Below, in pieces: positions 5,498-53,337 of a stretch of 64,000 bases of DNA. Position numbers and translations under genes: made by a program. The first letter of the stretch is position 1. Every line of letters starts with the position of its first letter. The notes under the pieces are model-generated. The model saw nothing but the letters and a program-made list of their open reading frames with translations. It searched no databases and had not been told where the DNA came from. The DNA is from an uncultured Gammaproteobacteria bacterium (GTDB lineage: Bacteria > Pseudomonadota > Gammaproteobacteria > JAADHQ01), in assembly GCA_963807455.1 (NCBI GenBank), contig CAWECS010000005.1, forward strand, positions 63,146-127,145, given 5' to 3'.

Positions 5498-5809
5498 ATG
5501 TCCAAGCAAAGAATACGTATCCGACTGAAGGCTTTTGATCATCGACTGATTGACAAGTCTGCTGTAGAAATAGCAGAGACTGCCAAGCGCACAGGTGCTC
5601 AGGTTCGTGGTCCTATCCCACTGCCGACGAAGAAGGAGCGTTTTACAATCCTGATTTCGCCGCATGTCAACAAGGATGCGCGCGACCAGTATGAACTGCG
5701 TACGCACAAGCGTCTGATGGACATTGTTGATCCAACAGACAAGACGGTTGATGCGCTGATGAAGCTGGATCTGGCCGCTGGCGTAGATGTACAGATTAAA
5801 CTGAATTGA
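5498..5809 (+). CDS. rpsJ: 30S ribosomal protein S10
   Basis: 103 aa, [19 protein letters not shown].. Starts 6 nt after the tuf stop, so there is no separate S10 leader. Confidence 0.96.
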
Positions 5810-5837
5810 TTGCGAAAGAAGCAACTGGGGTTTGGTA

Positions 5838-6476
5838 ATGACTATTAGTGTAGTAGGTCGAAAAGCAGGTATGACACGCGTCTTCACAGAAGCGGGTGAG
5901 TCTATCCCTGTGACAGTGATTGAGGTTGAGCCTAACCGGGTGACACAACTGAAGGCGGATGAGACTGATGGTTATCGTTCGATTCAAGTGACTGTAGGTC
6001 AGCGCAAGGCATCACGTGTCAATAAAGCGGCTGCCGGACACTTTGCCAAGGCAGGTGTTGAAGCAGGACGTGGACTCTGGGAGTCGCGTCTGGACGATGG
6101 CGAAGGCGAAGGCATTGAAGTGGGTTCAGAGATCAAGGTTGATGTCTTTGAAGAAGGTCAGATTGTTGATGTGACTGGGACCTCGATTGGTAAGGGTTTT
6201 GCTGGTGGTGTTAAGCGTCATCATTTCCACATGCAGGATGCGACTCATGGTAACTCATTGTCACATCGTGCATCGGGTTCTATTGGTCAAAACCAGACGC
6301 CTGGACGTGTATTTAAGGGTAAGAAAATGGCTGGTCACCTGGGTAATGTGCGCCGCACCATCCAGAACCTTGAAGTTGTCCGTGTTGATGCCGAGCGTAA
6401 CCTGTTATTAATTAAAGGTGCAGTGCCTGGTTCCAAAGGTGGCGATGTAATTATTCGCCCCGCTGTAAAAGCTTGA
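5838..6476 (+). CDS. rplC: 50S ribosomal protein L3
   Basis: L3 sequence (..[13 protein letters not shown]..). The ORF track starts at a TTG at 5832, but the ATG at 5838 (MTISVVGRK) aligns better with L3 N-termini. Confidence 0.93.
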
Positions 6477-6485
6477 TAGGAATAG

Positions 6486-7106
6486 ATGATGGATCTACAA
6501 ATGCAAAATGCCAAAGGTAACGCGAAACTAACAGTTTCTGATGCTGCATTTGGCCGTGAGTTTAATGAAGGCCTGGTTCATCAAGCAGTAGTGGGTTATC
6601 TCGCTACGGCAAGAGCAGGAACACGTGGCCATAAGAGTCGTTCTACGGCTAGCGGTGGCGGAATAAAACCTTGGCGACAAAAGGGGACAGGACGCGCGCG
6701 TTCTGGTACAATTCGCAGCCCAATCTGGAAAGGCGGCGGTAAAACCTTTGCAATCAGTGGTGGCCAGGATCATTCGGTCAAGCTGAACAAGAAAATGTAC
6801 CGCGCAGCAATGCAGTCCATCCTTTCTGAGTTGGTCAGGCAAGAACGCCTGGTAGTAATTGAAGATTTAACGTTGGATACACCAAAGACCAAGGACCTGC
6901 TGGCAAAAATGTCTGTTTTAGGCGTAGGTGAAAAGGCTTTGATTGTGACAGAGTCAGATAACCTGAATCTGTTTTTAGCAGCACGAAACTTGCCCTATGT
7001 GGAAGTTGAAGATGTGGCCGGGTTAAATCCTGTCAATCTTGTCGGCGCCGAGCAAGTTATCATGACAGAAGCTGCGATCAAGCGTGTAGAGGAGTTACTG
7101 GGATGA
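6486..7106 (+). CDS. rplD: 50S ribosomal protein L4
   Basis: 206 aa, ..[37 protein letters not shown].. Confidence 0.95.
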
Positions 7107-20156: not shown

Positions 20157-20792
20157 TTAACGTGTGCCAAAGACTACCATGGTTTTACCACTGACAGAGA
20201 TCAAACCTTGTTCTTCAAGGTTTTTCAGCACGCGCCCTACCATTTCACGAGAACAGCCGACGATCCGGCCTATTTCCTGTCTGGTGATTCTGATTTGCAT
20301 GCCATCAGGATGGGTCATGGCATCGGGCTCCTTGCATAGATCGAGCAAAGTTCTGGCGATCCGGCCGGTAACGTCAAGGAAGGCAAGGTCACTGACTTTG
20401 CGGCTAGTCTTTCTTAGTCGCATTGCCATTTGTGAGGCCAATTCAAATAAGATTTCCGGGTCTTCGTTGGCGAGCTGGCGATATCTTTCGTAACTGATTT
20501 CAGCGAGTTCACAGCTAACCTTGGTCTTGATCCAGGCACTACGCGTCTGATCCTGAAATAGGCCCATTTCGCCGAAAAAATCCCCTTTATTAAGGTATGC
20601 CAACACAATTTCACGGCCATCAGAGTCCTCGATAAGTACACTGACCGAACCTTCAATGATGTAATAGAGCACATCAGGCTTATCACCAGCATGGATAATC
20701 ACGCTTTTTGCGGCATATTTACGGGTATGGCAATGCGACAGAAAGCGTTCAATGACCGGATTTGGGCTTTTTGGTATCGGTAATTTAGCCAT
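20157..20792 (-). CDS. crp: cAMP receptor protein (CRP/FNR family transcriptional regulator)
   Basis: Near-identical to E. coli CRP over the cNMP-binding domain and the HTH ([20 protein letters not shown]). Start set at the internal ATG 20792 (MAKLPIPK.., GGA Shine-Dalgarno upstream), which gives 211 aa against 210 aa in E. coli. The ORF track extends to 20846. Confidence 0.93.
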
Positions 20793-21037
20793 GTGTTCAG
20801 ATAATTCCTTTTTTATGCTGCTGCTGTTTATATGCCTGGCGTACATAGTTTGGCAATGTCATGCTGCTTTAGTTCATCTAAAACACACGAATTTCTCGGT
20901 AGTTAACCATGCTGTTCTTGTAAACCTGCCGTATAATACTACGTTAACGGTTGTTTTTGCCAAGACTTGAGGCCAAAAAAGGCCTGCTGGTATATACAAT
21001 CTGATAAATGGTAGTTTGTCGGGGAGACAGATATTCA

Positions 21038-24008: not shown

Positions 24009-24745
24009 TATATCTTAATATACGACCAACCTTCCTGTTGTTTTTTCATGACCTCGCCCAGTGCTGAGGGTACGGTGACCGTTTCAGGTAACATAATGAC
24101 CTTCTTGCCGGTTTGTCGCTGAACGCGTTTAATTGCATTTTGACAAGCCATGAACGTCAGATTTTGATAGCGTTGCTGGAGCACTTTAATTCTTTCACCA
24201 AAAGGGGTGTGTTTTGCCTGTAGTAGTTTGAGCCCTTTACCATTAGTGAGAATATCCAGTTTTACTTTCTTACCCATGTTTTCATATTGACTGAGAAAAT
24301 TTTCAGTTTCATCCAGAACAGTTTGCAGTTTGGATTGATTGTCAGTGGTGACATGCAGCATGAGTTTTATTTCATCGGCATGGCTTGTTGTTGCCGATTT
24401 TATTTGCATGGCTTCTGCAATATCAAGCAGGCTGTTTGCTTGCTGACTGTGTAAATGCAGGCTCCAGCCAAGCGCCACACCAAGAGACAAAATAATACTG
24501 GCGGCAAAGGCCATTCTGGATTTTTTTGCAAATACAGATCGGCCTAGTTGGCTTCCTTCAGGCGGGAGTTTTTCATGATAAGCATAGCGCACCATCTCAC
24601 GTATTTTTTGCAAGTCAGTTATACGACTATCCAGCTCAGGATTGTAGCGTAGTTCATCAAGCAATCGACCTGTCTCTTTCTTATCGAGTTCGCCGTCGAT
24701 GTAGGCATTCAGGTATTCATCTGAATAGTGATCATTATTGTTCAT
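24008..24745 (-). CDS. Anti-sigma factor (single-pass membrane protein, RseA/ChrR-like N-terminal anti-sigma domain)
   Basis: 245 aa. The N-terminal ..SDEYLNAYIDGELD.. motif is typical of anti-sigma N-domains. It has one TM helix (AFAASIILSLGVALGW). The start overlaps the stop of the ECF sigma gene by 4 nt. Confidence 0.75.
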   Translation of the reverse strand: MNNNDHYSDEYLNAYIDGELDKKETGRLLDELRYNPELDSRITDLQKIREMVRYAYHEKLPPEGSQLGRSVFAKKSRMAFAASIILSLGVALGWSLHLHSQQANSLLDIAEAMQIKSATTSHADEIKLMLHVTTDNQSKLQTVLDETENFLSQYENMGKKVKLDILTNGKGLKLLQAKHTPFGERIKVLQQRYQNLTFMACQNAIKRVQRQTGKKVIMLPETVTVPSALGEVMKKQQEGWSYIKI

Positions 24746-25296
24746 TTCACTCTCCTGAGAAATGGTATTTGATCATCCATGGTCTGGGTTTTCAGGTTTA
24801 AAAGTTGTTGGGTTAAAGATTTGCGGGCACGACAGAGTCGGCTCATGACAGTACCTATCGGTGTTTGTAAAATTTCTGCGACTTCAGCGTAACTGAAACC
24901 TTCCAGGTCAACCAATGTTAGCGTCTGTCGTTGTCCTATCGGCAGTCCAGCGACAGCATTCAGTATCGAGTCGGTAATATATTGACGGTGGTATTGTGAC
25001 TCTGGAGTTTCATCAACAGTAAACACACAGTCTTCAATATCTTCATGTTCGCGATTGCGACGAAAATGATCGCGCCAGCAATTGGCGAGAATGCCATACA
25101 GCCAGCAATTCAATGCTTCAGGATTTTTCAGGCTGGAATATTTTTTTAATGCCTTGGTCATGGTTTCCTGGGTTAAGTCATCACTCAGCGCTTCATCGTG
25201 GCACCAGGAGTAAGCAATACGGTATAGCCTGTTTCTCTGTGCAGCAATTCTGCCTTTCATTTCCCGGTCTTTACAAAAATGCGTTAATGGGTTCAT
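24742..25296 (-). CDS. ECF (RpoE-like) RNA polymerase sigma-70 factor
   Basis: 184 aa with sigma-70 region 2 (..LSDDLTQETMTKALKK..) and region 4 (..LTLVDLEGFSYAEVAEILQTPIGTVMSRLCRAR..). It is translationally coupled to the anti-sigma gene. Confidence 0.85.
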   Translation of the reverse strand: MNPLTHFCKDREMKGRIAAQRNRLYRIAYSWCHDEALSDDLTQETMTKALKKYSSLKNPEALNCWLYGILANCWRDHFRRNREHEDIEDCVFTVDETPESQYHRQYITDSILNAVAGLPIGQRQTLTLVDLEGFSYAEVAEILQTPIGTVMSRLCRARKSLTQQLLNLKTQTMDDQIPFLRRVK

Positions 25297-29489: not shown

Positions 29490-29872
29490 ATGGATGCATT
29501 AGAGAATCTGGAAGTTTGGAAAAGAGCATGTAGACTTTCGGTGAGCATTTATCAAGTTTTTGCAGATAGTAAACAGTATGCTTTTAAGGATCAGATTACA
29601 CGTTCTGCTTTTTCAATTCCGTCGAATATCGCTGAAGGGTATGAAAGGGGTAGGTCATTACAGAATCCAGTTTTTAAATAATTGCTAAAGGTTCCTGCGG
29701 CGAACTTTGGACTCAATTAATGATCGGTAGAGCAGCAGGCTTGATTGATGCTGAAACGAGTAAAGAGCTGGAAAATGAAGCCAGGGAAATTTCAAAAATG
29801 CTTTATGGCTTAATGAAGTATTATAATGAAATTCAAGAAAAACTGGTTCCTAGCAAAAACCTAGTCTACTAG
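29490..29872 (+). pseudogene. Four-helix-bundle protein (23S rRNA intervening-sequence protein family, TIGR02436-like) with two +1 frameshifts
   Basis: Frame A reads [43 protein letters not shown], then stops. The family consensus continues as ..QFL.. in the +1 frame and as IIAKGSCGELWTQLMIGRAAGLIDAETSKELENEAREISKMLYGLMKY.. in the +2 frame, ending at 29872. AAGGAGG Shine-Dalgarno upstream. Confidence 0.6.
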
Positions 29873-29902
29873 TCCCTCGGTCACCTCGCTACTGTTATTT
29901 AT

Positions 29903-29976
29903 TGGGGAATCGTCTAACGGCAGGACAGAGGACTCTGACTCCTCTAATCAAGGTTCGAATCCTTGTTCCCCAGCCA
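29903..29976 (+). tRNA. tRNA-Gln (anticodon CUG)
   Basis: 74 nt. 7-bp acceptor stem TGGGGAA/TTCCCCA, D-arm GTCT..GGAC, anticodon stem GAGGA/TCCTC with loop CTCTGAC (anticodon CTG), T-arm CAAGG-TTCGAAT-CCTTG, discriminator G and an encoded CCA. Very similar to E. coli tRNA-Gln. Confidence 0.9.
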
Positions 29977-29987
29977 AAAAATAATAA

Positions 29988-30010
29988 CCCGCTTAGGCGG
30001 GTTTTATTTT
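29988..30010 (+). terminator. Terminator after tRNA-Gln
   Basis: CCCGC, loop TTAG, GCGGG, then TTTTATTTT. Confidence 0.7.
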
Positions 30011-30030
30011 GCTGGCGAACAGCGGAGCTT

Positions 30031-30066
30031 GCGGTTGCTCCTGCGCATCCATGCGCCCGCAACCGA
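30031..30066. repeat. REP-like palindromic element, copy A (inverted relative to copies B and C)
   Basis: GCGGTTGCTCCTGCGCATCCATGCGCCCGCAACCGA. Its reverse complement shares the core GCGGGCGCA(T/C)GGATGCGCAGGAGC with copies at 32803 and 32896. It is internally palindromic (GCGCAT..ATGCGC). Confidence 0.7.
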
Positions 30067-30412
30067 AGTGCCATTCCTTAGAGAAAGTTATAAACGGCAA
30101 TAAGCGCTTCCGAGTGCCCCTTATCAAAATACCGCTTAACGATAGTTAAATATCAACGATGAATGAAAATGGTAATGCAGGTGCGCTGGGCGCTGGGTGT
30201 ACCCATAATTGTTTATATTATTCTTCCAGACTGGGTGTTTAATAGTATTCAAGATCGTCTAGTAATTCATTCCCATATAGTCTGATACTTAGCAAGGCGC
30301 CATTTTATTAGCATTAGAATGTGGCGCAACATTCTGATTTTAATGCCATATTATATAATGTTGTAAATATGATACAGCTATTATAGGTGTGTCGTTTTTT
30401 TGAATAAAAATG

Positions 30413-30440
30413 TTGCATTTTTCTTTTTTGTTGCTATAGT
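30413..30440 (+). promoter_or_regulatory. sigma70-type promoter of porin copy 1 (TTGCAT-N16-TATAGT)
   Basis: TTGCAT 30413-30418 and TATAGT 30435-30440, about 50 nt upstream of the ATG. The same architecture occurs upstream of copy 2. Confidence 0.55.
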
Positions 30441-30489
30441 TCATGGCGTGTTTACAAATATAACTAAATTATTTAGAGGAATTCCTTAG

Positions 30490-31473
30490 ATGAATAAAAA
30501 ATTACTTGCTATTGCGGTGGGTGCAGCATTCAGTGCCGCTCCTATGTTTGCTTCTGCTGAAGTGACTGTTTATGGTCATGCTCAGGTTGAAGTGGGAACT
30601 GTTGATAATGGTACAACTGATACAAACAGTCGTTGAAGATAACGCTCGTGGACGTATTGGTTTCAAGGCTTCTGAAAAGCTGGGTAATGGTATGACAGCT
30701 ATCGCCAAGTACGAATTCCGTACTGATACTGCTGATAACGTTCGTACAGCAGATGGTGGTCCACTGACTGCACGTGAAGCCTTTGTTGGTTTGAAAGGTG
30801 GTTTCGGTACTGTTCAACTGGGTAACTTGAAGTCAGCTTATAAATACAACGGTGGTGTTAAGTATGACCCCTTCGTTGCTACATTGATTGAAGCTCGTGG
30901 CGCTAACGGTATGTCTAAAGGTGACTGGTAGGTGCATTTGGTCACAATGGTTTCCTCGCTAACAGTATTGGTTACATGTCGCCGAAGATCGGTGGTGGTT
31001 TCACTGGTTGGGCTACTTTCAGCCCTGATGAAGCTGGAGCAGGATAATGGTGCCGATGGCGACTATAGCTTTGGTCTGAAGTTTGCTCAAAAAGCCTGGG
31101 AAGTATTTGTTGCTGGTGTTAACAATGATGACGCTGCAAGTTACGAATGCAATCAAATTTGGTGGTATGTACAAATTTGGTAACTTCAAGGTTACTGGTC
31201 AGTACGAAATGGTGAGCTTCAATACTGGCTGCTACGCAGATACTGATGTTTATTTCATCGGTGGACAGGCCAAGTTTGGTAATAATGTATTGGTTGCGCA
31301 GTTCGGTAATTCAAGGATACAGACGGACGGCTGCTGATCTTGATTACTTCACTATCGGTGTCATTCATAATCTGTCCAAGAAAACACGTCTGACAGCTGG
31401 TTTCCGTAGCTACGATACTAGTGCTACAGCTGAAACTGATACATTTGCTGTTGGCATGCGTATGAAGTTCTAA
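30490..31473 (+). pseudogene. Outer-membrane general porin (Gram-negative/Neisseria-type porin family), tandem copy 1, disrupted by 5 or more frameshifts
   Basis: Starts MNKKLLAIAVGAAFSAAPMFASAEVTVYGHAQVEVGTVDNG (signal peptide) and ends ..AVGMRMKF*. Paralogous to 31748-32727 along its full length, but the reading frame changes near 30630, 30930, 31050, 31140 and 31320. Confidence 0.7.
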
Positions 31474-31499
31474 TAAAAACTATTAAAGTTGTATAGTTT

Positions 31500-31528
31500 G
31501 AACGGGGCCTTATGGACCCCGTTTTTTA
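31500..31528 (+). terminator. Rho-independent terminator after porin copy 1
   Basis: AACGGGGCC, loop TTATG, GACCCCGTT, then TTTTATT. Confidence 0.75.
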
Positions 31529-31677
31529 TTGTCGTAAATTTGATAATACTTAGCACTTGTTAATGAATACTTGCTTATTTTTGACGATAAGCCAGATACG
31601 AAAACCTAACAATAATCTATATTTAATAAACATTTACATGTGTGGATAATATCATTGTTGTTTTATTACAAAGATTG

Positions 31678-31705
31678 TTGCAATAAAACAGAATGTTGCT
31701 ATAGT
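31678..31705 (+). promoter_or_regulatory. sigma70-type promoter of porin copy 2 (TTGCAA-N16-TATAGT)
   Basis: TTGCAA 31678-31683 and TATAGT 31700-31705. The motif ...TGTTGCTATAGT.AT is shared with copy 1. Confidence 0.55.
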
Positions 31706-31747
31706 CATCCATGTTAATGGATATCTATTACTTGAGGAATCAATCAA

Positions 31748-32727
31748 ATGAATAAAAAATTACTTGCACTTGCCGTGGGCACAGCTTTCACGGCAGTACC
31801 AATGTTCGCAACTGCTGACGTGACTGTTTATGGCCATGCACAGGTTGAAGTGGGAACAGTTGATACAGGCGCAACTGATCAAACAGTTGTAGAGGATAAC
31901 GCACGCGGTCGTATTGGTATCAAGGCATCTGAGAAACTGTCTAATGGTATGACGGCTATCGCCAAGTACGAATTCCGTACTGATACTGCTGATAACGTTC
32001 GTACAGCAGATGGTGGCCCACTGACTGCTCGTGAAGCCTTTGTTGGTTTGAAAGGTGGTTTCGGTACTGTCAATTGGGTAACTTGAAGTCAGCTTATAAA
32101 TACACCGGTGGTGTTAAGTATGATCCCTTCGTCGCTACATTGATTGAAGCACGTGGTGCCAATGGTATGTCCGGTGGTGAACTGGGCAATGGTCAATATG
32201 GCCATAACAGCTTCCTGGGTAACGCAATTGGCTATATGTCACCCAAAATCGGCGGTGGTTTCACTGGCTGGGCGACATTCAGCCCTGATGAAGGTGCTGG
32301 TTCAGGCGGTGATTACAGCTTTGGTTTGCAGTTTGCTCAAAAAGCCTGGGAAGTATTTGTTGCCGGTGTTAGAAATGACGAAACTGTAGGTGCTGGTGGT
32401 GATGCAATCAAGTTTGGTGGTATGTACAAATTTGGTAACTTCAAGGTTGTTGGCCAGTACGAAACACTGAGTTTTGAAACAGCAGGTACGCCTGACACTG
32501 ATATCTATTTCGTCGGTGGTCAGGCCAAGTTTGGTAACAATGTATTGGTTGCCCAGTTCGGTAACAAGGATCCAGGCGGTGCTGCTTCTGATCTTGATTA
32601 CTTCACCATTGGTTTGATTCATAACCTGTCCAAGAAGACACGTCTGACAGCTGGTTTCCGTAGCTATGATACAAGTGCTACTACAGAAACTGAAACATTT
32701 GCTGTTGGCATGCGTATGAAGTTCTAA
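31748..32727 (+). pseudogene. Outer-membrane general porin (Neisseria-type porin family), tandem copy 2, interrupted by a single 1-nt deletion
   Basis: MNKKLLALAVGTAFTAVPMFATADVTVYGHAQVEVG.. has a signal peptide and aromatic girdle and ends ..FAVGMRMKF. One frame change lies near 32060-32075: ACTGTCAATTGGG here against ACTGTTCAACTGGG in copy 1. Otherwise about 326 aa are open. It could be functional if the indel is a sequencing error. Confidence 0.7.
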
Positions 32728-38317: not shown

Positions 38318-38731
38318 GGGTAAATTAAGCCTGTTGTTTTCGACCATTCACTGACTAAAAAGCACTTGGTTACATAAGGGTTATCGTCATTTGGTCAACA
38401 ATTCTTTAAACGGATGATGTTTATTCCCTGCCAATTTTATTTTTTATTGAATGTGATAATGTATGTCATTGATATTGATTTATATTTAGCAGGGTATTTG
38501 TTTTTAGTCACAGGTAATTAATCTATGCGATTGATAGCAAGTTTAGGCTTTCCTGGCCTACTTTTTGCTATAGAGACCCGCTATTTATTAATGTTATTTA
38601 GCCACAAGGCGAGTTTTTAGTCCTGTTTGCAGCGTGAAGATTTTCCCTGTGAGGCCGATATATAAATGGTGAATAATGGTGTCGGACCCGGTAAACATTA
38701 TACAAAATGTTATTTCTCCAGATTTAAGCTT

Positions 38732-40067
38732 ATGCAAAAAACAAAAATATTCTCCCCGCTTTTCAGTTTTGGTATCCGCCAGAAGCTGTTGCTGATCCTG
38801 TTGATTGTGCTGTTAACCGCCTTGACGCTGAGCGGCTGGATGGCATTACAGCAGGAAAAAGTAAATACTCTGGAAGAGATTAATCAGCGCGGTTCGGATA
38901 TCAGTCGTTTTGTTGCCAAGTCGCTCAGTTATAGTGTGGTTGGTTATGATTACCATACCATTCAATTATTGCTGGATGAGATTACGTCATCAGAAGATGT
39001 TGGTTATGCCCGGGTCACCAATCAGCAGGGCAATGTCATGGGCGAGGCCGGTGAAAGGGAACCCGGATTGTTCTCGACGATGGTGATGTTTACCCAGGAT
39101 ATCAAACTTGAGGACAGCCTCATCGGAAATCTGGAATTAGGGTTGAGCACAGCTAAAACGATCGAGACTCTTGAAGAAAAAAAATATAGTATCATTCAGC
39201 GTGAAGTTATTATCGTCCTGCTGATTGCGTTAGGAGAGTTTATTGCGCTTTCGATTTTTATTATTCGACCCGTGCGATTAATGTCAAAGACACTTGTTTC
39301 CAGTGTTGATGAAAATGGTCATATTATAGAAAAAATACCGGTTGTGTCTCGTGATGAGTTCGGACAATTGGCTGAAAGTTTTAATACTCTGAGTGAGCGT
39401 CTAAATGTTGCTAATCAGCAACTACAGTCAAAAATAGAGCTGGCTGACAAGCAGTTAGCTGGAGACAAACAGACAGTTGCGGATTCAGTCAGAAGAGTTG
39501 AAAATCATTAATGAGAAATTTAAAAGAATGTCAATTACTGACTCATTAACCGGTTTATATAATCGCAGGCATTTTGAGCAGTTACTAAATACTGAATTTA
39601 AGACGGCCAGACGGCATGGCGAAGTAAATAGCTTGATTATTATTGATATTGATCATTTCAAACGAATTAATGACAATTTCGGACATCCAGCAGGAGACCT
39701 TGTGCTGCGGGATGTTGCCAGGTTACTGAAGAAGCGTCTACGTAGCACAGACTATCTTTGTCGTCTTGGTGGGGAAGAATTTGTAGTGTTATGCAAGCGG
39801 GCTGACAAGCAATCCGCGCTCAATATTGCTGAGGAAATGCGTAAAATAGTAGAACAAGCCCAATTTGATTTGGGAGGTGAGGTAACTCAGGTGACTATTA
39901 GTCTTGGTGTGTCGACACTGAGTCAGAATGAGGAATTAGAAGAGGCTGATCTGGCCTACCGTCAGGCTGACAAGGCGGTCTATTACAGTAAGCAAAATGG
40001 TCGCAATAAAACTGCTCATTATGATGACATCAAGGAACATGAGCTGGTCGATGAGTTTAGTCAGTAA
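38732..40067 (+). pseudogene. Membrane-bound diguanylate cyclase (periplasmic sensor-TM-HAMP-GGDEF) with one frameshift at the HAMP/GGDEF junction
   Basis: ORF 38666/38732-39511 encodes TM1, a periplasmic region of about 130 aa, TM2, HAMP and a coiled coil (..QQLQSKIELADKQLA..) and then stops. The GGDEF domain continues in the -1 frame from about 39459 (..LETNRQLRIQSEELKIINEKFKRMSITDSLTGLYNRR..RLGGEEFVV..). A single indel lies near 39455-39475. Confidence 0.7.
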
Positions 40068-41285: not shown

Positions 41286-42800
41286 ATGACCGAAAAATAC
41301 GTCGATAAAATCATCAAAGCACGCGTTTATGACGTGGCGAAAGAAAGCGCTCTGGATCGGGCCAATCTACTCAGTCGCAGAATGGGCTGTGATATTTACC
41401 TCAAGCGCGAAGATCTACAACAGGTGTTTTCATTTAAGTTAAGAGGTGCCTATAACAAAATCGTGCAGTTACCCGAAGCGGCACTCAAATGTGGAGTCAT
41501 TGCTGCATCAGCCGGCAATCATGCCCAGGGAGTAGCGCTGGCAGCAGCGAAATTAGGTATATCTGCCACCATTGTAATGCCAGTAACCACACCTAGTATA
41601 AAGGTCGAATCAGTACGCAATCATGGAGCAAAAATAATCTTGCATGGTGATGCTTATGACGACGCTTATGCTCATGCTCTGATACTGGCTGAAAAGCAAA
41701 AACTGACCTTTATTCATCCCTTCGATGACCCGGATGTTATTGCCGGGCAGGGTACTGTGGCGATGGAAATATTGCATCAATTCACTGACGATATTCATGC
41801 GATATTCGTTCCTGTCGGTGGTGGCGGACTGATTGCCGGGATGTCTGCCTATATCAAGCATGTGCGTCCGGAGATTAAAGTGATTGGTGTTGAACCGGAG
41901 GATGCACCTACCATGCAGCAGTCACTTTTGAACGATGAGCGTGTACTGCTTGATCAGGTGGGTATTTTTGCTGATGGTGTCGCTGTTCGCCAGGTCGGTC
42001 AGGAAAATTTTCGCATCGCGCGCACCTGTGTTGATGACATGGTGCTGGTGACAACGGATGAAATTTGTGCGGCCATCAAGGATATTTTCGATGATACCCG
42101 TTCGGTAATGGAGCCTGCCGGCGCATTGGCCGTAGCTGGAATGAAGAAATATATCAAGCAGCATGCTTTGGCTGATAAGAATCTGATTGCCGTCAATACG
42201 GGGGCCAATTTGAACTTTGATCGTTTAAGACATGTTGCCGAGAGGGCTGAGCTGGGCGAGCAAAGGGAGGCATTGCTGGCGGTGACCATACCTGAAAAAG
42301 CCGGAAGTTTTCGTCAGTTTTGTCAGGCCATCGCTCATCGCGGTATTACCGAGTTCAATTATCGCTATGCCGACGACAAGGATGCGCATATTTTCGCAGG
42401 TATTCAGTTACGGCATGGAATTGAGGAAAAACAGGAGTTACTGCTGCAATTGCATGAGATGGGCTACCCTGTTCTGGATATGACTGACAATGAAATGGCA
42501 AAAATACATATCCGCTATATGGTCGGTGGTCATGCAAAAAGCGTCACCAATGAACTGGTGTACCGATTTCAGTTTCCGGAACGTCCGGGCGCCTTGTTAG
42601 CTTTTTTGACCAATATGGGTGCAGACTGGAATATTAGTATGTTTCATTACCGCAACCATGGTGCAGATTACGGTCGAGTATTGGTAGGTATTCAGGTACC
42701 TGAAGATGAGCGTGATCGTTTCGATCAATTTCTATTGCAGCTCGGTTATGAGTACTGGCAAGAGCAGAATAACCTGGCTTATTCCTTGTTCCTGGGTTGA
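41286..42800 (+). CDS. ilvA: Threonine dehydratase, biosynthetic
   Basis: 504 aa with PLP-fold motifs (..SFKLRGAYNK..) and two C-terminal ACT-like regulatory domains. Confidence 0.92.
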   Translation: MTEKYVDKIIKARVYDVAKESALDRANLLSRRMGCDIYLKREDLQQVFSFKLRGAYNKIVQLPEAALKCGVIAASAGNHAQGVALAAAKLGISATIVMPVTTPSIKVESVRNHGAKIILHGDAYDDAYAHALILAEKQKLTFIHPFDDPDVIAGQGTVAMEILHQFTDDIHAIFVPVGGGGLIAGMSAYIKHVRPEIKVIGVEPEDAPTMQQSLLNDERVLLDQVGIFADGVAVRQVGQENFRIARTCVDDMVLVTTDEICAAIKDIFDDTRSVMEPAGALAVAGMKKYIKQHALADKNLIAVNTGANLNFDRLRHVAERAELGEQREALLAVTIPEKAGSFRQFCQAIAHRGITEFNYRYADDKDAHIFAGIQLRHGIEEKQELLLQLHEMGYPVLDMTDNEMAKIHIRYMVGGHAKSVTNELVYRFQFPERPGALLAFLTNMGADWNISMFHYRNHGADYGRVLVGIQVPEDERDRFDQFLLQLGYEYWQEQNNLAYSLFLG

Positions 42801-43044
42801 GCATTCTGCCAATTGAAATACATTCTGGCTATTCTTTTAAAACCGCCGAATGAGGCTAGACTAATTAACCCTCAATAGCATATTGAAGTGGGTCATCTTG
42901 ATTCGGAATAGTGATTGCATGCGATCGGCTCATGTTTGCATCAACAACTTTACGGGTGTTTCTTAAAGCCGGATTCAACGCGGGTTAGCTTGTTCACTAA
43001 GGCCTTATCTGATCATCAATTTCTTTACTAATTTATTGATATAC

Positions 43045-43073
43045 AAAGAAAAGGCCCGCATAGCGGGCCTTTA
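43045..43073 (-). terminator. Rho-independent terminator downstream of the histone-like gene
   Basis: AAGGCCCGC, loop ATA, GCGGGCCTT. On the minus strand it is followed by a T-rich run. Confidence 0.7.
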
Positions 43074-43093
43074 ATGTTTGAAGAGAATTAATA

Positions 43094-43486
43094 CTAGCGT
43101 CTTCTCTTCTTGGCAGCAGCTCTTTTCTTCTTAGCTGGAGCCTTTTTCTTCTTCTTGGCAGCAGCTTTTTTCTTTTTAGCTGGAGCCCTTTTCTTCTTCT
43201 TGGCAGCAGCTTTTTTCTTTTTAGCTGGAGCCCTTTTCTTCTTCTTGGCAGCAGCTTTTTTCTTTTTCTTAGCTGGAGCCTTTTTCTTCTTCTTGGCAGC
43301 AGCTTTTTTCTTCTTAGCTGGAGCCTTTTTCTTCTTCTTAGCTGCAGCTTTTTTCTTTTTAGCTGGAGCTTTTTTCTTCTTAGCTGTTGCCTTCTTCTTC
43401 TTGGCTACAGACTTTTTCTTTTTAGCCACTGCCTTTTTCTTCTTGGCAGGAGCCCTCTTTTTTACTGCTTTCTTTTTAGTTGCCAT
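43094..43486 (-). CDS. Lys/Ala-rich histone H1-like nucleoid protein (AlgP/Hc-like), composed of KKKK-A-P/A-AKKKK repeats
   Basis: 130 aa from the ATG at 43486, which has GGAGG 7 nt upstream: MATKKKAVKKRAPAKKKKAVAKKKK.. followed by about 16 repeats of A(A/P)AKKKK(K). The DNA is a perfect 42-48-nt tandem repeat. The ORF track lists a TTG at 43501. Confidence 0.75.
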   Translation of the reverse strand: MATKKKAVKKRAPAKKKKAVAKKKKSVAKKKKATAKKKKAPAKKKKAAAKKKKKAPAKKKKAAAKKKKKAPAKKKKKAAAKKKKRAPAKKKKAAAKKKKRAPAKKKKAAAKKKKKAPAKKKRAAAKKRRR

Positions 43487-44698
43487 GTTAATGACCTCCA
43501 ATAATAAATAATATAAGTATCGTTTGCTCGCGATTGAGTATATACCAGTAGAAAGAAAATTCCAGTAAAATCAAAAAATAATTTGACTTTTTTAATTTTA
43601 GTTATACTTGAATGTTAAAAAAACATTGTTGCTGGAAATATCTTTTATTGCTGCATTCTGACTTTTGTGTCGGCAAACGATATGAAAACTTAAACTTTAG
43701 GTAACAGAATCGGATAAAAAACGAATATTTTAAAAAAAAATTAGTATATGTAGCCATTTTTGATAATTAATTCGGATTATTTTTAAAAATTTAAAGATGA
43801 AAACTTGTTTTTAGTGTTTCTTGAGTAAGAAATAATTACTTTTTCATTCGCTGAACGAAATTTGAATGCATCAACAGAGATTTTTTAGTTAAATTTATAA
43901 AAATCGTAAAAAAAATGCCTTCGTAATAGTTGGTTTTTCTAAAAAATGCTTTTTTATGTTTATTTTTTCTTTTTTAATTCTATTTTTGTCTTAAATTATC
44001 CTGCTGAACGTGAAAAATGACGCGCAATGTAAAAAAGTGTCGTAATTTTTTACATTTTTTATTGATTGATCACTGACAAATGCGCTGTTTTGACCTGGTT
44101 GTTGTCGTTTGGCCGCTATTTTTCAAAAAATTAATAGAGCCGACTGATAATTTAAGCCGATTTTGTTTTTTTAAAAGAATATTTTTGTCTTTTTGACTCA
44201 CTCAGAGGGTACTAATCGCTGTTCTTGGTTGTTGAAGGGCTTTTATATTGGATGAATGCTCGTACAAGCGGTTTTTTTCAATTGTTTTTGTTGTTCTGAT
44301 AATTTTTATCTTATTTTTTTTGTAAAGTGTAAAAAATTGTAACCAATGGTCATTTTATCTCATGCTGGCTTTTATGCAGAATAATGTTGCCATGCATTCC
44401 CGTTTCTATTCCGGTTGCATGATTTCAATGCATCTATGTTTATTCATACTCTCTTTTGGCTGAATAATTAATCGCTGCCATGAAGATGCAATTTATTATT
44501 TAGACAATTTGAGCAGCATTGATAACGAAGCGTCGATAAAAAGCTTTATGCATTGCAAGATGCAATGAAATGCCGAATGTTTTACCTTAGGCGACTCTGT
44601 TTCAATGAGCAGGTGCGAATGAAACCAGTTTTTTTTCAGCCAGATCGTAAAAACTCTTTTTTGTATTCTACGGCCGCATTATCAAAGGTGGTAAAAAT

Positions 44699-45295
44699 CT
44701 ACTGTTTTGAGGAATAGAGTTTATTTTCAGTGATAACTAATTGCAGCGGTACATCCCAGGTTTGCGGATGGATGTTCGGGACTTTTTGAAACTCATAGGC
44801 AATGCCAATCATTCTGGGTTTGTCCCAATGTTGCCTGAAACGCAAAAAGTTAAAGCTACGGTCATAGTATCCTCCTCCCATACCGATTCGGTGGCATTGC
44901 TGATCAAAGGCCACTAGCGGCGTTATGACCAGATCAAGATGAGTAGCAGGAATTAAATCACGACCATGGTATACCGGCTCGGGAATTCCATAGCGATTGA
45001 TTTGCATTTTGCTGTCGGCATGCCAGCGCGTAAACCAGAGCCGGTTAGTTAAGAAAGGCATCAATACGGGCAGGTAAATTGATTTACCTAACTGACGGGC
45101 CAGATCAACTAATGGTAATGGACTCATTTCACCTTGCATGGGCAGATAAACAGCAAGATTCTGGCTGTTGAGAAAGAACTTATGTTTTTTTAGTCTTGCA
45201 TGCATCATCCAGGCATATTGTTGACGGCTGATGTTATCCAGCTGCTGTCGTTGCCGCTTGATGCGGGATCTGATAGTGGCTATTTCAGTTTTCAT
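44699..45295 (-). CDS. fau: 5-formyltetrahydrofolate cyclo-ligase
   Basis: 198 aa, MTHFS family (..GMGGGYYDRS..). It lies directly downstream of the 6S RNA region, as E. coli ygfA/fau does. Confidence 0.85.
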   Translation of the reverse strand: MKTEIATIRSRIKRQRQQLDNISRQQYAWMMHARLKKHKFFLNSQNLAVYLPMQGEMSPLPLVDLARQLGKSIYLPVLMPFLTNRLWFTRWHADSKMQINRYGIPEPVYHGRDLIPATHLDLVITPLVAFDQQCHRIGMGGGYYDRSFNFLRFRQHWDKPRMIGIAYEFQKVPNIHPQTWDVPLQLVITENKLYSSKQ

Positions 45296-45429
45296 TCTCT
45301 ATCTCTATTTTAATGTCAGTGCCTTGAAGCATGATATTTTGCCATGAGAAATAGCTCTGGAAGCGTTATTAGCCAGTGAGGAAACGATCGTGTTGATGGA
45401 TAAAGTAAAAGGATCATCGCTTAAGATTA

Positions 45430-45613
45430 AAGGGTCCCGCGTGTGCCGTCGCAGCTTTCGCCCTTGAACCTGAGGTTCAGGTGGGAATAGCGTGGATTCA
45501 TCAGGCTTTCCGCTTCAAGGCGGACTTGCACAACAGTATCTGAACACTAAACCCGGGTATAATAACATGGCTCAAGAATTTACCCGGCTGCTAACGAACA
45601 CCGCAGGAGATCA
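45430..45613 (-). ncRNA. ssrS: 6S RNA (SsrS); end coordinates approximate
   Basis: The minus-strand sequence AUGAUCUCCUGCGGUGUUCGUUAGCAGCCGGG..CUUGAGCC..UAUACC ... CACCUGAACCUCAGGUUCAAGGGCGAAAGCUGCGACGGCACACGCGGGACCC aligns segment by segment with E. coli 6S RNA (..UGUUCGCAAGCGGGCC..CUGAGCC..CAUACC ... CACCUUGAACCAAGGGUUCAAGGG..CUGCGGCGGCAU..). It has the conserved zapA-ssrS-fau synteny. Confidence 0.65.
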
Positions 45614-45615
45614 TA

Positions 45616-45930
45616 TTATAGTTCCATTTGCTTGCCGTTATGCAAGGCTGATTCAATTTTTTCCTGAATATTTCGCACGCGGCTACTGATCGACTGGTTT
45701 ATGTCGTCTTTCTGATTTTTATTGGTCAGTAGATCGTGGGTGATGTTCAGTGCTGCCATGACTGCAATACGATCAAGACCAACGACTTTGCCACTATCAC
45801 GGATTTCGCGCATTTTTTTGTCAAGATACTGTGCACTGGATCTAAGGCTGATTTCCTCATCCTCTGGGCAGGCGATTAGAAATTCCTTGTCAAGTATATG
45901 GACATTAAGGCGTTTATTTTCCTTGCTCAT
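45616..45930 (-). CDS. zapA: Cell division protein ZapA
   Basis: 104 aa, ..LNVHILDKEFLIACPEDEE..LRSSAQYLDKKMREI.. in the conserved position upstream of ssrS. Confidence 0.85.
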   Translation of the reverse strand: MSKENKRLNVHILDKEFLIACPEDEEISLRSSAQYLDKKMREIRDSGKVVGLDRIAVMAALNITHDLLTNKNQKDDINQSISSRVRNIQEKIESALHNGKQMEL

Positions 45931-53093: not shown

Positions 53094-53106
53094 TGCACTT
53101 CAATTA

Positions 53107-53337
53107 CAGACCCGATGGGAGATACCCGAACACTTGTTCGGGAGCCGAAGGCGCAACACATCGCTCGGAAACGCTCAGGCAAACGGACTATCGGGTTATA
53201 TTGACTCTGGAGAGTGATTACATAGGGTGATCCACCGACGGGGCAGAGAATAGGCCATTATGCTGTCATTCTCAATCTCTCAGGTTAAGGGACAGAGGGG
53301 CGGTAACAGGTCTTGGCCTGTTGCCGTCTTTTTTTTG
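53107..53337 (+). promoter_or_regulatory. Glycine riboswitch (tandem aptamers) with terminator expression platform, leader of the gcvT operon
   Basis: Aptamer 1 has P1 CCCGAT..ATCGGG (53111-53195) with GGGAGA, GCCGAAGGCGCAA and CUCAGGCAAACGGAC. Aptamer 2 has P1 CTCTG..CAGAG (53206-53297) with GGAGAG, CACCGACGGGGCA and CUCUCAGGUUAAGGGACAGAG. Then an intrinsic terminator: a 10-bp stem CGGTAACAGG/CCTGTTGCCG plus T8 (53301-53336). This is a classic ON-switch arrangement. Confidence 0.85.

Follow-up and report, generated by a model that had tools for sequence, protein, structure and literature searches.

A putative control region with a long phased A/T-tract array upstream of a histone H1-like gene in an uncultured gammaproteobacterium

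Curved upstream regions built from phased A tracts modulate promoters or nucleate H-NS, with hns, virF, and plc as examples. The H1-like proteins of bacteria (Hc1/Hc2, AlgP, and the like) are little understood outside Chlamydia and Pseudomonas, and the control of their dosage is largely obscure. In Chlamydia, the H1-like gene hctB (Hc2) is transcribed by sigma-28, and sigma-66 chromatin immunoprecipitation was also tested at the hctB promoter of Chlamydia trachomatis (PMC12282069). Eukaryotic histone H1 prefers A·T DNA generally, and its binding to the A-tract-rich DNA of scaffold-associated regions (SARs) is ~40-fold better than to a fragment of pUC19 (PMC1890542). Upstream of promoters in prokaryotes, intrinsically curved DNA acts as a pinning site for plectonemes (PMC6301789), and the periodicity typical of bacterial genomes is ~11 bp (PMC4132750). 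Here we describe the intergenic region between fau and a gene for a Lys/Ala-rich, histone-H1-like protein in a 64,000-nucleotide (nt) stretch of contig CAWECS010000005.1 from an uncultured Gammaproteobacteria bacterium (the whole stretch is referred to below as the window).

Our analysis suggests that this gap is probably a dedicated non-coding control region for the H1-like nucleoid protein gene, with tandem promoters and with a DNA shape that is conserved above its sequence. On the comparative evidence, the gap is conserved and probably has a control function; it is neither junk nor a hidden gene, and it holds no known RNA. Two tandem promoter blocks appear to be aimed at the H1-like gene, a distal one of the sigma-28 class ~205 nt before the ATG and a proximal one that is near-invariant. 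The features on which this reading is based, in window coordinates, are the following.

43487 to 44698 (1,212 bp), no strand assigned: intergenic region between fau and the H1-like gene, AT-rich and non-coding, with fau upstream in the same orientation.
43094 to 43486, minus strand: Lys/Ala-rich histone-H1-like gene of 130 amino acids (aa) by translation, containing 45-nt tandem repeats; the gene that the gap would control.
43600 to 44400 (strongest from 43700 to 44300), no strand assigned: helically phased A/T-tract array with 10.3-bp AA/TT periodicity, coherent over ~600 bp.
43667 to 43693, minus strand: predicted sigma-28 (FliA)-type promoter, TTAAGTTT-N11-GCCGACAC, pointing at the H1-like gene.
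43487 to 43590, minus strand: predicted proximal promoter, 5' untranslated region, and Shine-Dalgarno (SD) sequence, of which ~105 nt are near-invariant in a 14-locus alignment.
44037 to 44054, minus strand: box C, TGTAAAAAATTACGACAC, 18 nt with the consensus TGTAAAAAAnnRCGACAC, conserved in related loci.
44553 to 44565, no strand assigned: palindrome D, TTGCA-N3-TGCAA, at the fau-proximal edge of the AT-rich region.
44699 to 45295, minus strand: fau (5-formyltetrahydrofolate cyclo-ligase), adjoining the gap upstream.

An earlier note on this DNA had described an AT-rich stretch with phased A/T tracts and with no open reading frame (ORF) of at least 60 aa. The ORF list contains no ORF of this size on either strand between 43512 and 44698, which, at 1,187 bp, is the longest ORF-free stretch of the 64 kb (the runner-up is 820 bp). 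The border of 43502 given in that note derives from a TTG-extended ORF, and the real start of the H1-like gene is the ATG at 43486, with GGAGG at 43495 to 43499 as its SD sequence, so that the gap runs from 43487 to 44698. The AT-richness is borne out by a GC content of 0.21 to 0.34 in 300-bp windows, compared with 0.42 to 0.50 in the flanks and a comparison value of ~46%. The quoted A/T tracts and the TGCATTGCAAGATGCAATGAAATGC motif lie where they had been placed, and the guess that the tracts are phased is correct and strongly non-random: the AA/TT Fourier spectrum of the gap has a sharp peak at 10.3 bp, with a z score of 6.6 against dinucleotide shuffles. Of the repeated motifs in the note, only the core TTGCAAGATGCAA at 44553 to 44565 is conserved in relatives; the second copy of GATGCAAT is specific to the window.

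Among 315 sliding 1,200-bp windows over the 64 kb, the top five by this periodicity all overlap the gap, while the rest of the window has its own weak periodicity maximum near 10.7. Normalised power at 10.3 bp is 25 for the array in the window and averages 21.7 over the related loci described below, compared with a background of ~1.4. Since the spectral peak is narrow, the phase is kept over ~600 bp. Searches for tandem and dispersed repeats found no repeat unit behind the 10.3-bp periodicity. A dinucleotide wedge model gives 10 to 14 degrees per helical turn at 43670 to 44270 versus 5 to 7 in the flanks, and an end-to-end/contour ratio of 0.23 versus 0.72 ± 0.14 in shuffles. The array DNA is thus predicted by this model to be strongly curved or superhelically coiled.

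Fourteen related loci were gathered by a fau protein search, by look-ups of the encoding contigs, and by two scans, one genomic and one metagenomic, that used the invariant SD/start sequence of the H1-like gene (GGAGGTCATTAACATGGCAAC, identical in 14 genomes). A further hit of the metagenome scan, L028, is a chance match within an unrelated coding gene and was rejected. Proteins of the related loci are 54 to 84% (fau) and 71 to 89% (IlvA) identical to those of the window. The order fau, gap, Lys/Ala-rich H1-like gene, and then ilvA on the opposite strand is kept in 14/14 loci. Their gaps are 813 to 1,338 bp long and have 20 to 32% GC, in loci that have 39 to 47% GC overall; other intergenic gaps in these genomes are mostly shorter than 300 bp. 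In the window, the minus-strand order is zapB, zapA, 6S RNA, fau, the gap, and the H1-like gene, with ilvA and rpiA beyond. The H1-like gene itself is a 45-nt tandem repeat array of 7.9 copies with 86% matches, it is followed on its 3' side by a strong terminator (43050 to 43072), and, given the tandem repeats, its length probably varies between strains; the lengths called in the relatives are 84 to 159 aa. Its protein product has no match in Pfam or NCBIfam because it is of low complexity.

Comparison of these loci indicates that the shape of the array is better conserved than its sequence. The coding DNA of the window and of locus L001 is just 68 to 82% identical, so that neutral intergenic sequence is expected to be unalignable, and most of the gap indeed is. 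Among ~9 lineages the periodic cores cannot be aligned (0 to 90 of 585 nt align, and these are mostly box C), yet the spectral peak lies at 10.2 to 10.4 bp in 14/14 gaps (z scores of 2.1 to 27) and the best 600-bp window of each locus falls in its gap (rank 1 in 14/14). Based on the persistence of the periodicity in cores that do not align, we conclude that geometry is what is conserved. The 10.3-bp phase of the array relative to the -35 element of the sigma-28-type promoter also clusters, with R values of 0.63 to 0.69 over all 14 loci. When one representative is used per lineage, R is 0.57 to 0.67 (Rayleigh P of 0.013 to 0.048; 0.009 to 0.048 in an anchor-jitter control), and over a 150-bp span the phases of 6 of the 9 lineages fall within ~20 degrees of one another, with a seventh (L013) ~40 degrees away. 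The rotational phase relative to the predicted sigma-28 promoter thus appears similar in most lineages.

These observations make it very improbable that the gap is a neutral AT-rich spacer, left by a decayed gene or an old insertion and now drifting, with function limited to the proximal promoter. The AT-richness, the lack of alignment between most lineages, and the range of gap lengths are what such a spacer would have, and the related locus L008 has an extra insertion of ~200 nt. Drift, however, yields no sharp, phase-coherent 10.3-bp periodicity that ranks first in 14/14 loci, and neither the retention of boxes C and D nor the constant phase relative to the promoter would be expected from it. 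The structural signal is kept in lineages in which the sequence is unalignable, the gap is retained even where fau is only 54% identical and other intergenic gaps are mostly <300 bp, and tblastx between the gaps finds no pseudogene trace. The L008 insertion, which lies right after the fau stop codon (5610 to 5860 of that locus), is GC-richer; it is absent from the window, of which L008 is the closest relative, and from L010, and it may be a repeat or a small mobile element.

A degraded, horizontally acquired segment, which had been among the explanations first offered for the gap, was rejected. The gap is syntenic in 14 genomes, the periodicity is kept where the sequence is unalignable, and the gap borders have no flanking repeats, tRNA, integrase, or mobility genes; low GC is the sole trait shared with a decaying AT-rich island of this kind. 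A replication origin or DNA unwinding element was likewise rejected, as there is no TTATCCACA match with one mismatch or fewer in 43487 to 44698 and GC skew is positive throughout the window, with no switch.

The distal promoter block matches the class recognized by sigma-28. Promoters of this class have the consensus TAAAGTTT-n11-GCCGATAA, with a CGA core in the -10 octamer, and the aer promoter of Escherichia coli, which has been defined by experiment, reads TAAAGATA-n11-GCCGACAT (PMC2859248). The window promoter, TTAAGTTT-N11-GCCGACAC, has 3 mismatches in 16 positions to this consensus, while the functional aer promoter itself scores 4 mismatches. A site of this type is found in 14/14 loci on the same strand, at -196 to -222 from the ATG and with 2 to 4 mismatches; in all of them the spacer is exactly 11 nt and free in sequence, while the octamers are conserved. 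The site therefore has both octamers at the 11-nt spacing of sigma-28 promoters and is conserved in the manner of a promoter. In dinucleotide-shuffled gaps, matches with ≤3 mismatches occur at a rate of 0.0077 per kb. The -10 octamer of sigma-28 promoters spans -15 to -8 (PMC12784957), which predicts a transcription start near 43659 and a leader of ~173 nt.

The 64-kb window contains four sigma-28 matches with ≤3 mismatches, compared with 0.57 expected, and 0 of 100 shuffles reach four. One of these, TGAAGATT-N11-GCCGATAT at 38635 to 38661 on the plus strand, falls within 318 bp of ORF-free, AT-rich DNA directly before a CHASE5-HAMP/GGDEF sensor gene, and it offers weak independent support for the use of sigma-28 by this organism. 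The CHASE5-HAMP ORF (38666 to 39511) and the GGDEF ORF (39477 to 40067) overlap by 35 nt in different frames, and a frameshift has probably divided what is a single sensor diguanylate cyclase. A match on the opposite strand of the gap, TAAACTTT-N11-TCGGATAA at 43691 to 43717 (plus strand), is back-to-back with the conserved promoter and points away from the H1-like gene. It is present in the window and, in weaker form, in L008 only, and is probably due to chance.

The proximal block lies between the sigma-28-type promoter and the H1-like gene. Its 14-locus consensus is GTCAAATTA-TTTTTTGAwTTTACTGGAATTTTCT-N4-TACTGGTATATACTCAA...GAGCAAACGATAC...TATTGGAGGTCATTAAC-ATG, and the detailed reading is GTCAAATTA-TTTTTTGAATTTACTGGAATTTTCT-N4-TACTGGTATATACTCAA..GAGCAAACGATAC..TATTGGAGGTCATTAAC-ATG. 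The likely -10 element is TATACT, reading from 43542 to 43537, and the SD sequence GGAGG reads from 43499 to 43495. The core of the block is retained even in the more distant loci L029 and L030, in which a recognisably similar promoter (ACTGG..AATTT..CACTKGTWTATACTCA) is found at 6430 to 6561 and 6640 to 6764, respectively. A consensus promoter and terminator scan of 42800 to 45600 returned fewer promoter-like sites than shuffles. Together with the sigma-28-type promoter, the proximal block supports the suggestion in the earlier note that the gap serves the histone-like gene as a long 5' regulatory region.

Two further short elements are conserved in the distal part of the gap. In an unbiased 8-mer enrichment over the distal gaps, palindrome D ranks at the top and is joined by box C, GTAAAAAA, and nothing else. 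Box C, which sits within the array, has 0 or 1 mismatches in 7 loci (at -457 to -568) and is present in looser form in 4 more, so that all copies together lie 457 to 596 nt before the ATG; the window and L001 are 97% identical over 30 nt around it. It is the sole match in the 64-kb window, in which 0.10 is expected, and is likely to be a protein-binding site. Palindrome D is perfect in 12 of the 14 loci, and the remaining 2 each differ from it at 1 position. The arms are invariant and the central triplet is free (TCT, AGA, AGT, or ACT), and in the window it extends to CATTGCA-TCT-TGCAATG. There is exactly one palindrome D per locus, 72 to 391 nt after the fau stop codon, and the copy in the gap is the single perfect one in the 64-kb window. 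As RNA, it would form a hairpin of 5 to 7 bp with 2 G-C pairs per arm, the fold of which is no better than that of shuffles. A T-run follows it in some loci only, and 3 of the 14 pass a relaxed hairpin-plus-T-run scan. The invariant sequence of the arms, the lack of compensatory changes, and the weakness of the hairpin make a protein operator a likelier role for palindrome D than a fau terminator.

Several identities for these elements were tried by eye and rejected for unfit spacing or conservation: for box C, a second sigma-28 promoter, a TyrR, CRP, CpxR, or IHF site, and a GacA box; for palindrome D, a matS-like site and a LysR box of the form T-N11-A; and, for the sequence around palindrome D or downstream of box C, sigma-54 promoters (GG-N10-GC). 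At 20160 to 20846 (minus strand) the window encodes a true equivalog of CRP, the score of which (358 bits) exceeds the curated cutoff. The stretch from 24011 to 25296, also on the minus strand, holds an extracytoplasmic function (ECF) sigma factor followed by an unannotated ORF of 245 aa that is probably its anti-sigma factor. CRP and the ECF sigma factor are candidate regulators, and no matching site for either was recognised in the gap.

Small conserved islands of this kind, and a conserved promoter 173 nt upstream of the ATG that implies at least a long leader, are also what might be expected if the gap encodes non-coding RNA, whether as a sigma-28-driven small RNA (sRNA) or long structured leader from ~43659 or as a transcript that includes box C or hairpin D. 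The corresponding E. coli slot, next to fau on the downstream side, encodes an sRNA (SibC) and a toxin (IbsC), and the 146-nt proximal leader in the window folds somewhat better than shuffles, with a marginal z score of -2.4. The other folds tested (leader, box C, and palindrome D, on both strands) have z scores of only -0.25 to -1.0, and the conserved islands are just 13 to 30 nt long within unalignable sequence. RNAalifold on 13 leaders predicts pairs that are all invariant (covariation term of +0.35), so that there is no covariation. Intrinsic terminators are absent from both strands of the window gap and from the related gaps, in which a relaxed scan finds only palindrome D in 3 loci. At the gathering threshold, Rfam reports only 6S RNA and riboswitches in the window, all of them outside the gap, and no match in the gaps of the 14 related loci. 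When 43000 to 45700 is searched at E values up to 10, the best match in the gap is 18.5 bits against a 60-bit cutoff, and Sib and QUAD are not found. We therefore regard an RNA-encoding gap, which the earlier note had raised in the form of unannotated sRNAs, as quite unlikely.

Two of the Rfam matches outside the gap are of some interest in themselves. The 6S RNA gene (ssrS) is at 45430 to 45612 on the minus strand (91.8 bits), between zapA and fau as in E. coli, and it scores 80 to 105 bits in every related locus. The glycine cleavage genes, with gcvT, are directly preceded by a tandem glycine riboswitch (53106 to 53305, plus strand), the two aptamers of which score 63 and 46.9 bits. Elsewhere in the window, an ORF-poor stretch at 29682 to 32727 contains a tRNA (29903 to 29973) and fragments of porin genes. 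One fragment of 119 aa (30572 to 30928) covers Porin_4 positions 47 to 132; a pair of 112 and 217 aa (31748 to 32086 and 32074 to 32727) covers positions 3 to 99 and 106 to 309, and looks like a single gene interrupted by a frameshift, which would reflect either pseudogene formation or an error in the assembly.

It is harder still to credit that the gap hides a small or non-canonical protein-coding gene. Short ORFs of 30 to 54 aa do occur, the largest in the window gap being 54 aa (44553 to 44717, plus strand), 51 aa (43602 to 43757, minus strand), and 43 aa, and a 60-aa gene was called in the L010 gap by its annotators. A conserved coding gene, which would have overturned the earlier description of the gap, was looked for by tblastx between the orthologous gaps and was not found. 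Similarity in this comparison is equal in all six frames and runs through stop codons, which is not frame-specific conservation. No ORF is conserved in position or frame among the orthologous gaps, and the conserved islands are 13 to 30 nt long.

A more serious alternative, although we think it unlikely, is that the array is an autonomous element of chromosome architecture (for example, a plectoneme-pinning site, a domain boundary, or a site at which a nucleoid protein loads with high affinity) and that gene regulation is confined to the proximal 210 nt. A coherent 10.3-bp array of 600 bp far exceeds what a promoter needs, and the same gene cassette exists in L029 with no array. Palindrome D marks the far edge of the array, and its 5-N3-5 geometry resembles that of architectural sites such as matS. 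Curvature is able to pin plectonemes (PMC6301789). On the other side, the array always abuts the H1-like promoters and keeps its rotational phase relative to them. It is found only beside the H1-like gene in this slot, and there is no second array of this kind in the 64-kb window or in ~140 kb of the related loci.

The more distant loci also bear on the history of the region. L017, in which fau is 50% identical, has neither the H1-like gene nor the gap; its slot is occupied by an unrelated 290-aa ORF and a DUF4124 gene, and the GC content is normal. In L030, an EVE-domain gene and an 86-aa ORF occupy the slot and are followed by the H1-like gene. In L029 (fau 52% identical) the H1-like gene and the proximal promoter are both retained, and the gap before them measures 890 bp and has a higher GC content. 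Both L029 and L030 have weaker sigma-28-like matches, with 4 to 5 mismatches, at -132 and -116, and neither has the 10.3-bp array, box C, or palindrome D. Since these distant loci have the promoter cassette but no array, the cassette appears to be older than the curved array.

A number of observations weigh against a control region organized around the curved array. The L029 gap, which lacks the 10.3-bp signal and both conserved boxes, shows that gene and promoter can exist with no array, and the array is thus not indispensable for expression of the H1-like gene. At ~600 bp, the array far exceeds in length every upstream curved activator that we know of. The clustering of phase has a P value of just ~0.01 to 0.05 once phylogenetic dependence is removed, and L022 and L023, which have the weakest periodicity, are phase outliers. 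No fliA or flagellar genes were seen within the 64-kb window. The proximal promoter combines its likely -10 element, TATACT, with a poor -35 element. Finally, every functional step that we propose is a prediction from sequence and comparison. The length of the array cuts both ways: because it is too long for the known curved activators, it fits a role beyond simple promoter activation.

If the gap is the control region of the H1-like gene, the curved array may serve as an architectural platform that sets the activity of both promoters. The most economical choice of ligand, and the likeliest, would be the A-tract- or AT-preferring H1-like protein itself. Binding of the curved region by the adjacent Lys-rich protein, as part of a curved-DNA silencing region, was one of the explanations in the earlier note; curved, phased-A-tract DNA is supported by our analysis, and binding by that protein is plausible. 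The protein could load cooperatively on the array and spread over the promoters or loop to them, which would result in negative autoregulation or titration. A Lys/Ala-rich condensing protein would be expected to need tight dosage control of this kind. Instead, or in addition, an H-NS-like silencer might act on the array, or plectonemes might be pinned upstream of the promoters, and temperature-dependent loss of A-tract bending is a further possible contribution. Boxes C and D may be bound by further regulators. Sigma-28 control would couple synthesis of the condensing protein to a programme of motility or development, in the manner of Chlamydia hctB.

A bolder form of this proposal, which we offer tentatively and regard as doubtful, is that the array is a purpose-built DNA superstructure selected for its shape and not its sequence, a bacterial counterpart of a SAR or positioning sequence, which loads the H1-like protein cooperatively or senses supercoiling or temperature. 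The array would then act in cis as a dosage sensor for a chromosome-condensing protein that is made under sigma-28. To our knowledge, a self-contained module of a histone gene and its own titration platform has not been described in bacteria.

Comparison with described systems separates what is familiar here from what is new. The E. coli aer promoter has the same layout of two octamers with a spacer of exactly 11 nt, and its -10 octamer, GCCGACAT, is identical to that of the window, GCCGACAC (PMC2859248). As at Chlamydia hctB, a sigma-28-type promoter appears to serve the gene of a Lys-rich, H1-like, DNA-condensing protein. Unlike the hctB and aer promoters, the predicted window promoter lies 173 nt before the ATG, with a second, invariant promoter in between. 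The host also differs from Chlamydia, in that it is an uncultured, free-living gammaproteobacterium and not a developmental intracellular pathogen. If the prediction is correct, this is a second, independent link between sigma-28 and a histone-like protein, outside the Chlamydiae.

In E. coli, the fau-serA region occupies the same slot, downstream of ssrS-fau and before the rpiA neighbourhood, and consists of 388 bp that hold the SibC sRNA and the 19-aa IbsC toxin of a type I toxin-antitoxin system. In contrast, Rfam reports neither Sib nor any other family in the window gap, and no small ORF is conserved there. For annotation, the locus indicates that 1.2 kb of seemingly "empty" sequence in a compact genome may be non-coding DNA with a function and not a missed gene.

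The array resembles the curved regions of hns, virF, and plc in having A/T tracts at the helical period directly upstream of promoters, with a preserved rotational setting and predicted curvature. Those known regions consist of a few tracts over 50 to 150 bp, whereas the window array extends for ~600 bp, or ~58 helical turns, in one phase. Its shape, unlike that of known curved upstream DNA, is conserved across lineages without conservation of sequence. Its period of 10.3 bp also differs from the ~11 bp that is usual in bacterial genomes (PMC4132750). By analogy only, the pairing of an A-tract region of 0.6 to 1 kb with a Lys/Ala-rich, H1-type protein is like that of eukaryotic SARs, at which histone H1 preferentially nucleates, or of kinetoplast bent DNA, which H1-like KAP proteins condense. 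Unlike a SAR, the A-tract region here lies in cis beside the gene of the protein in question, an arrangement that suggests autoregulation and not scaffolding across the genome.

The ingredients of this locus, namely sigma-28 promoters, curved upstream DNA, and H1-like nucleoid proteins, are thus all known. What is new is the scale and coherence of the array, its 10.3-bp period, the conservation of shape without that of sequence, and the fixed pairing with an H1-like gene that has a predicted sigma-28 promoter. The locus is a natural case in which evolution keeps the geometry of DNA (period, long-range phase, and promoter register) while the sequence drifts. Since the array adjoins the gene of a protein class that prefers such DNA, the idea that DNA shape is a regulatory or architectural signal in bacteria can be tested here with one fragment and one protein.

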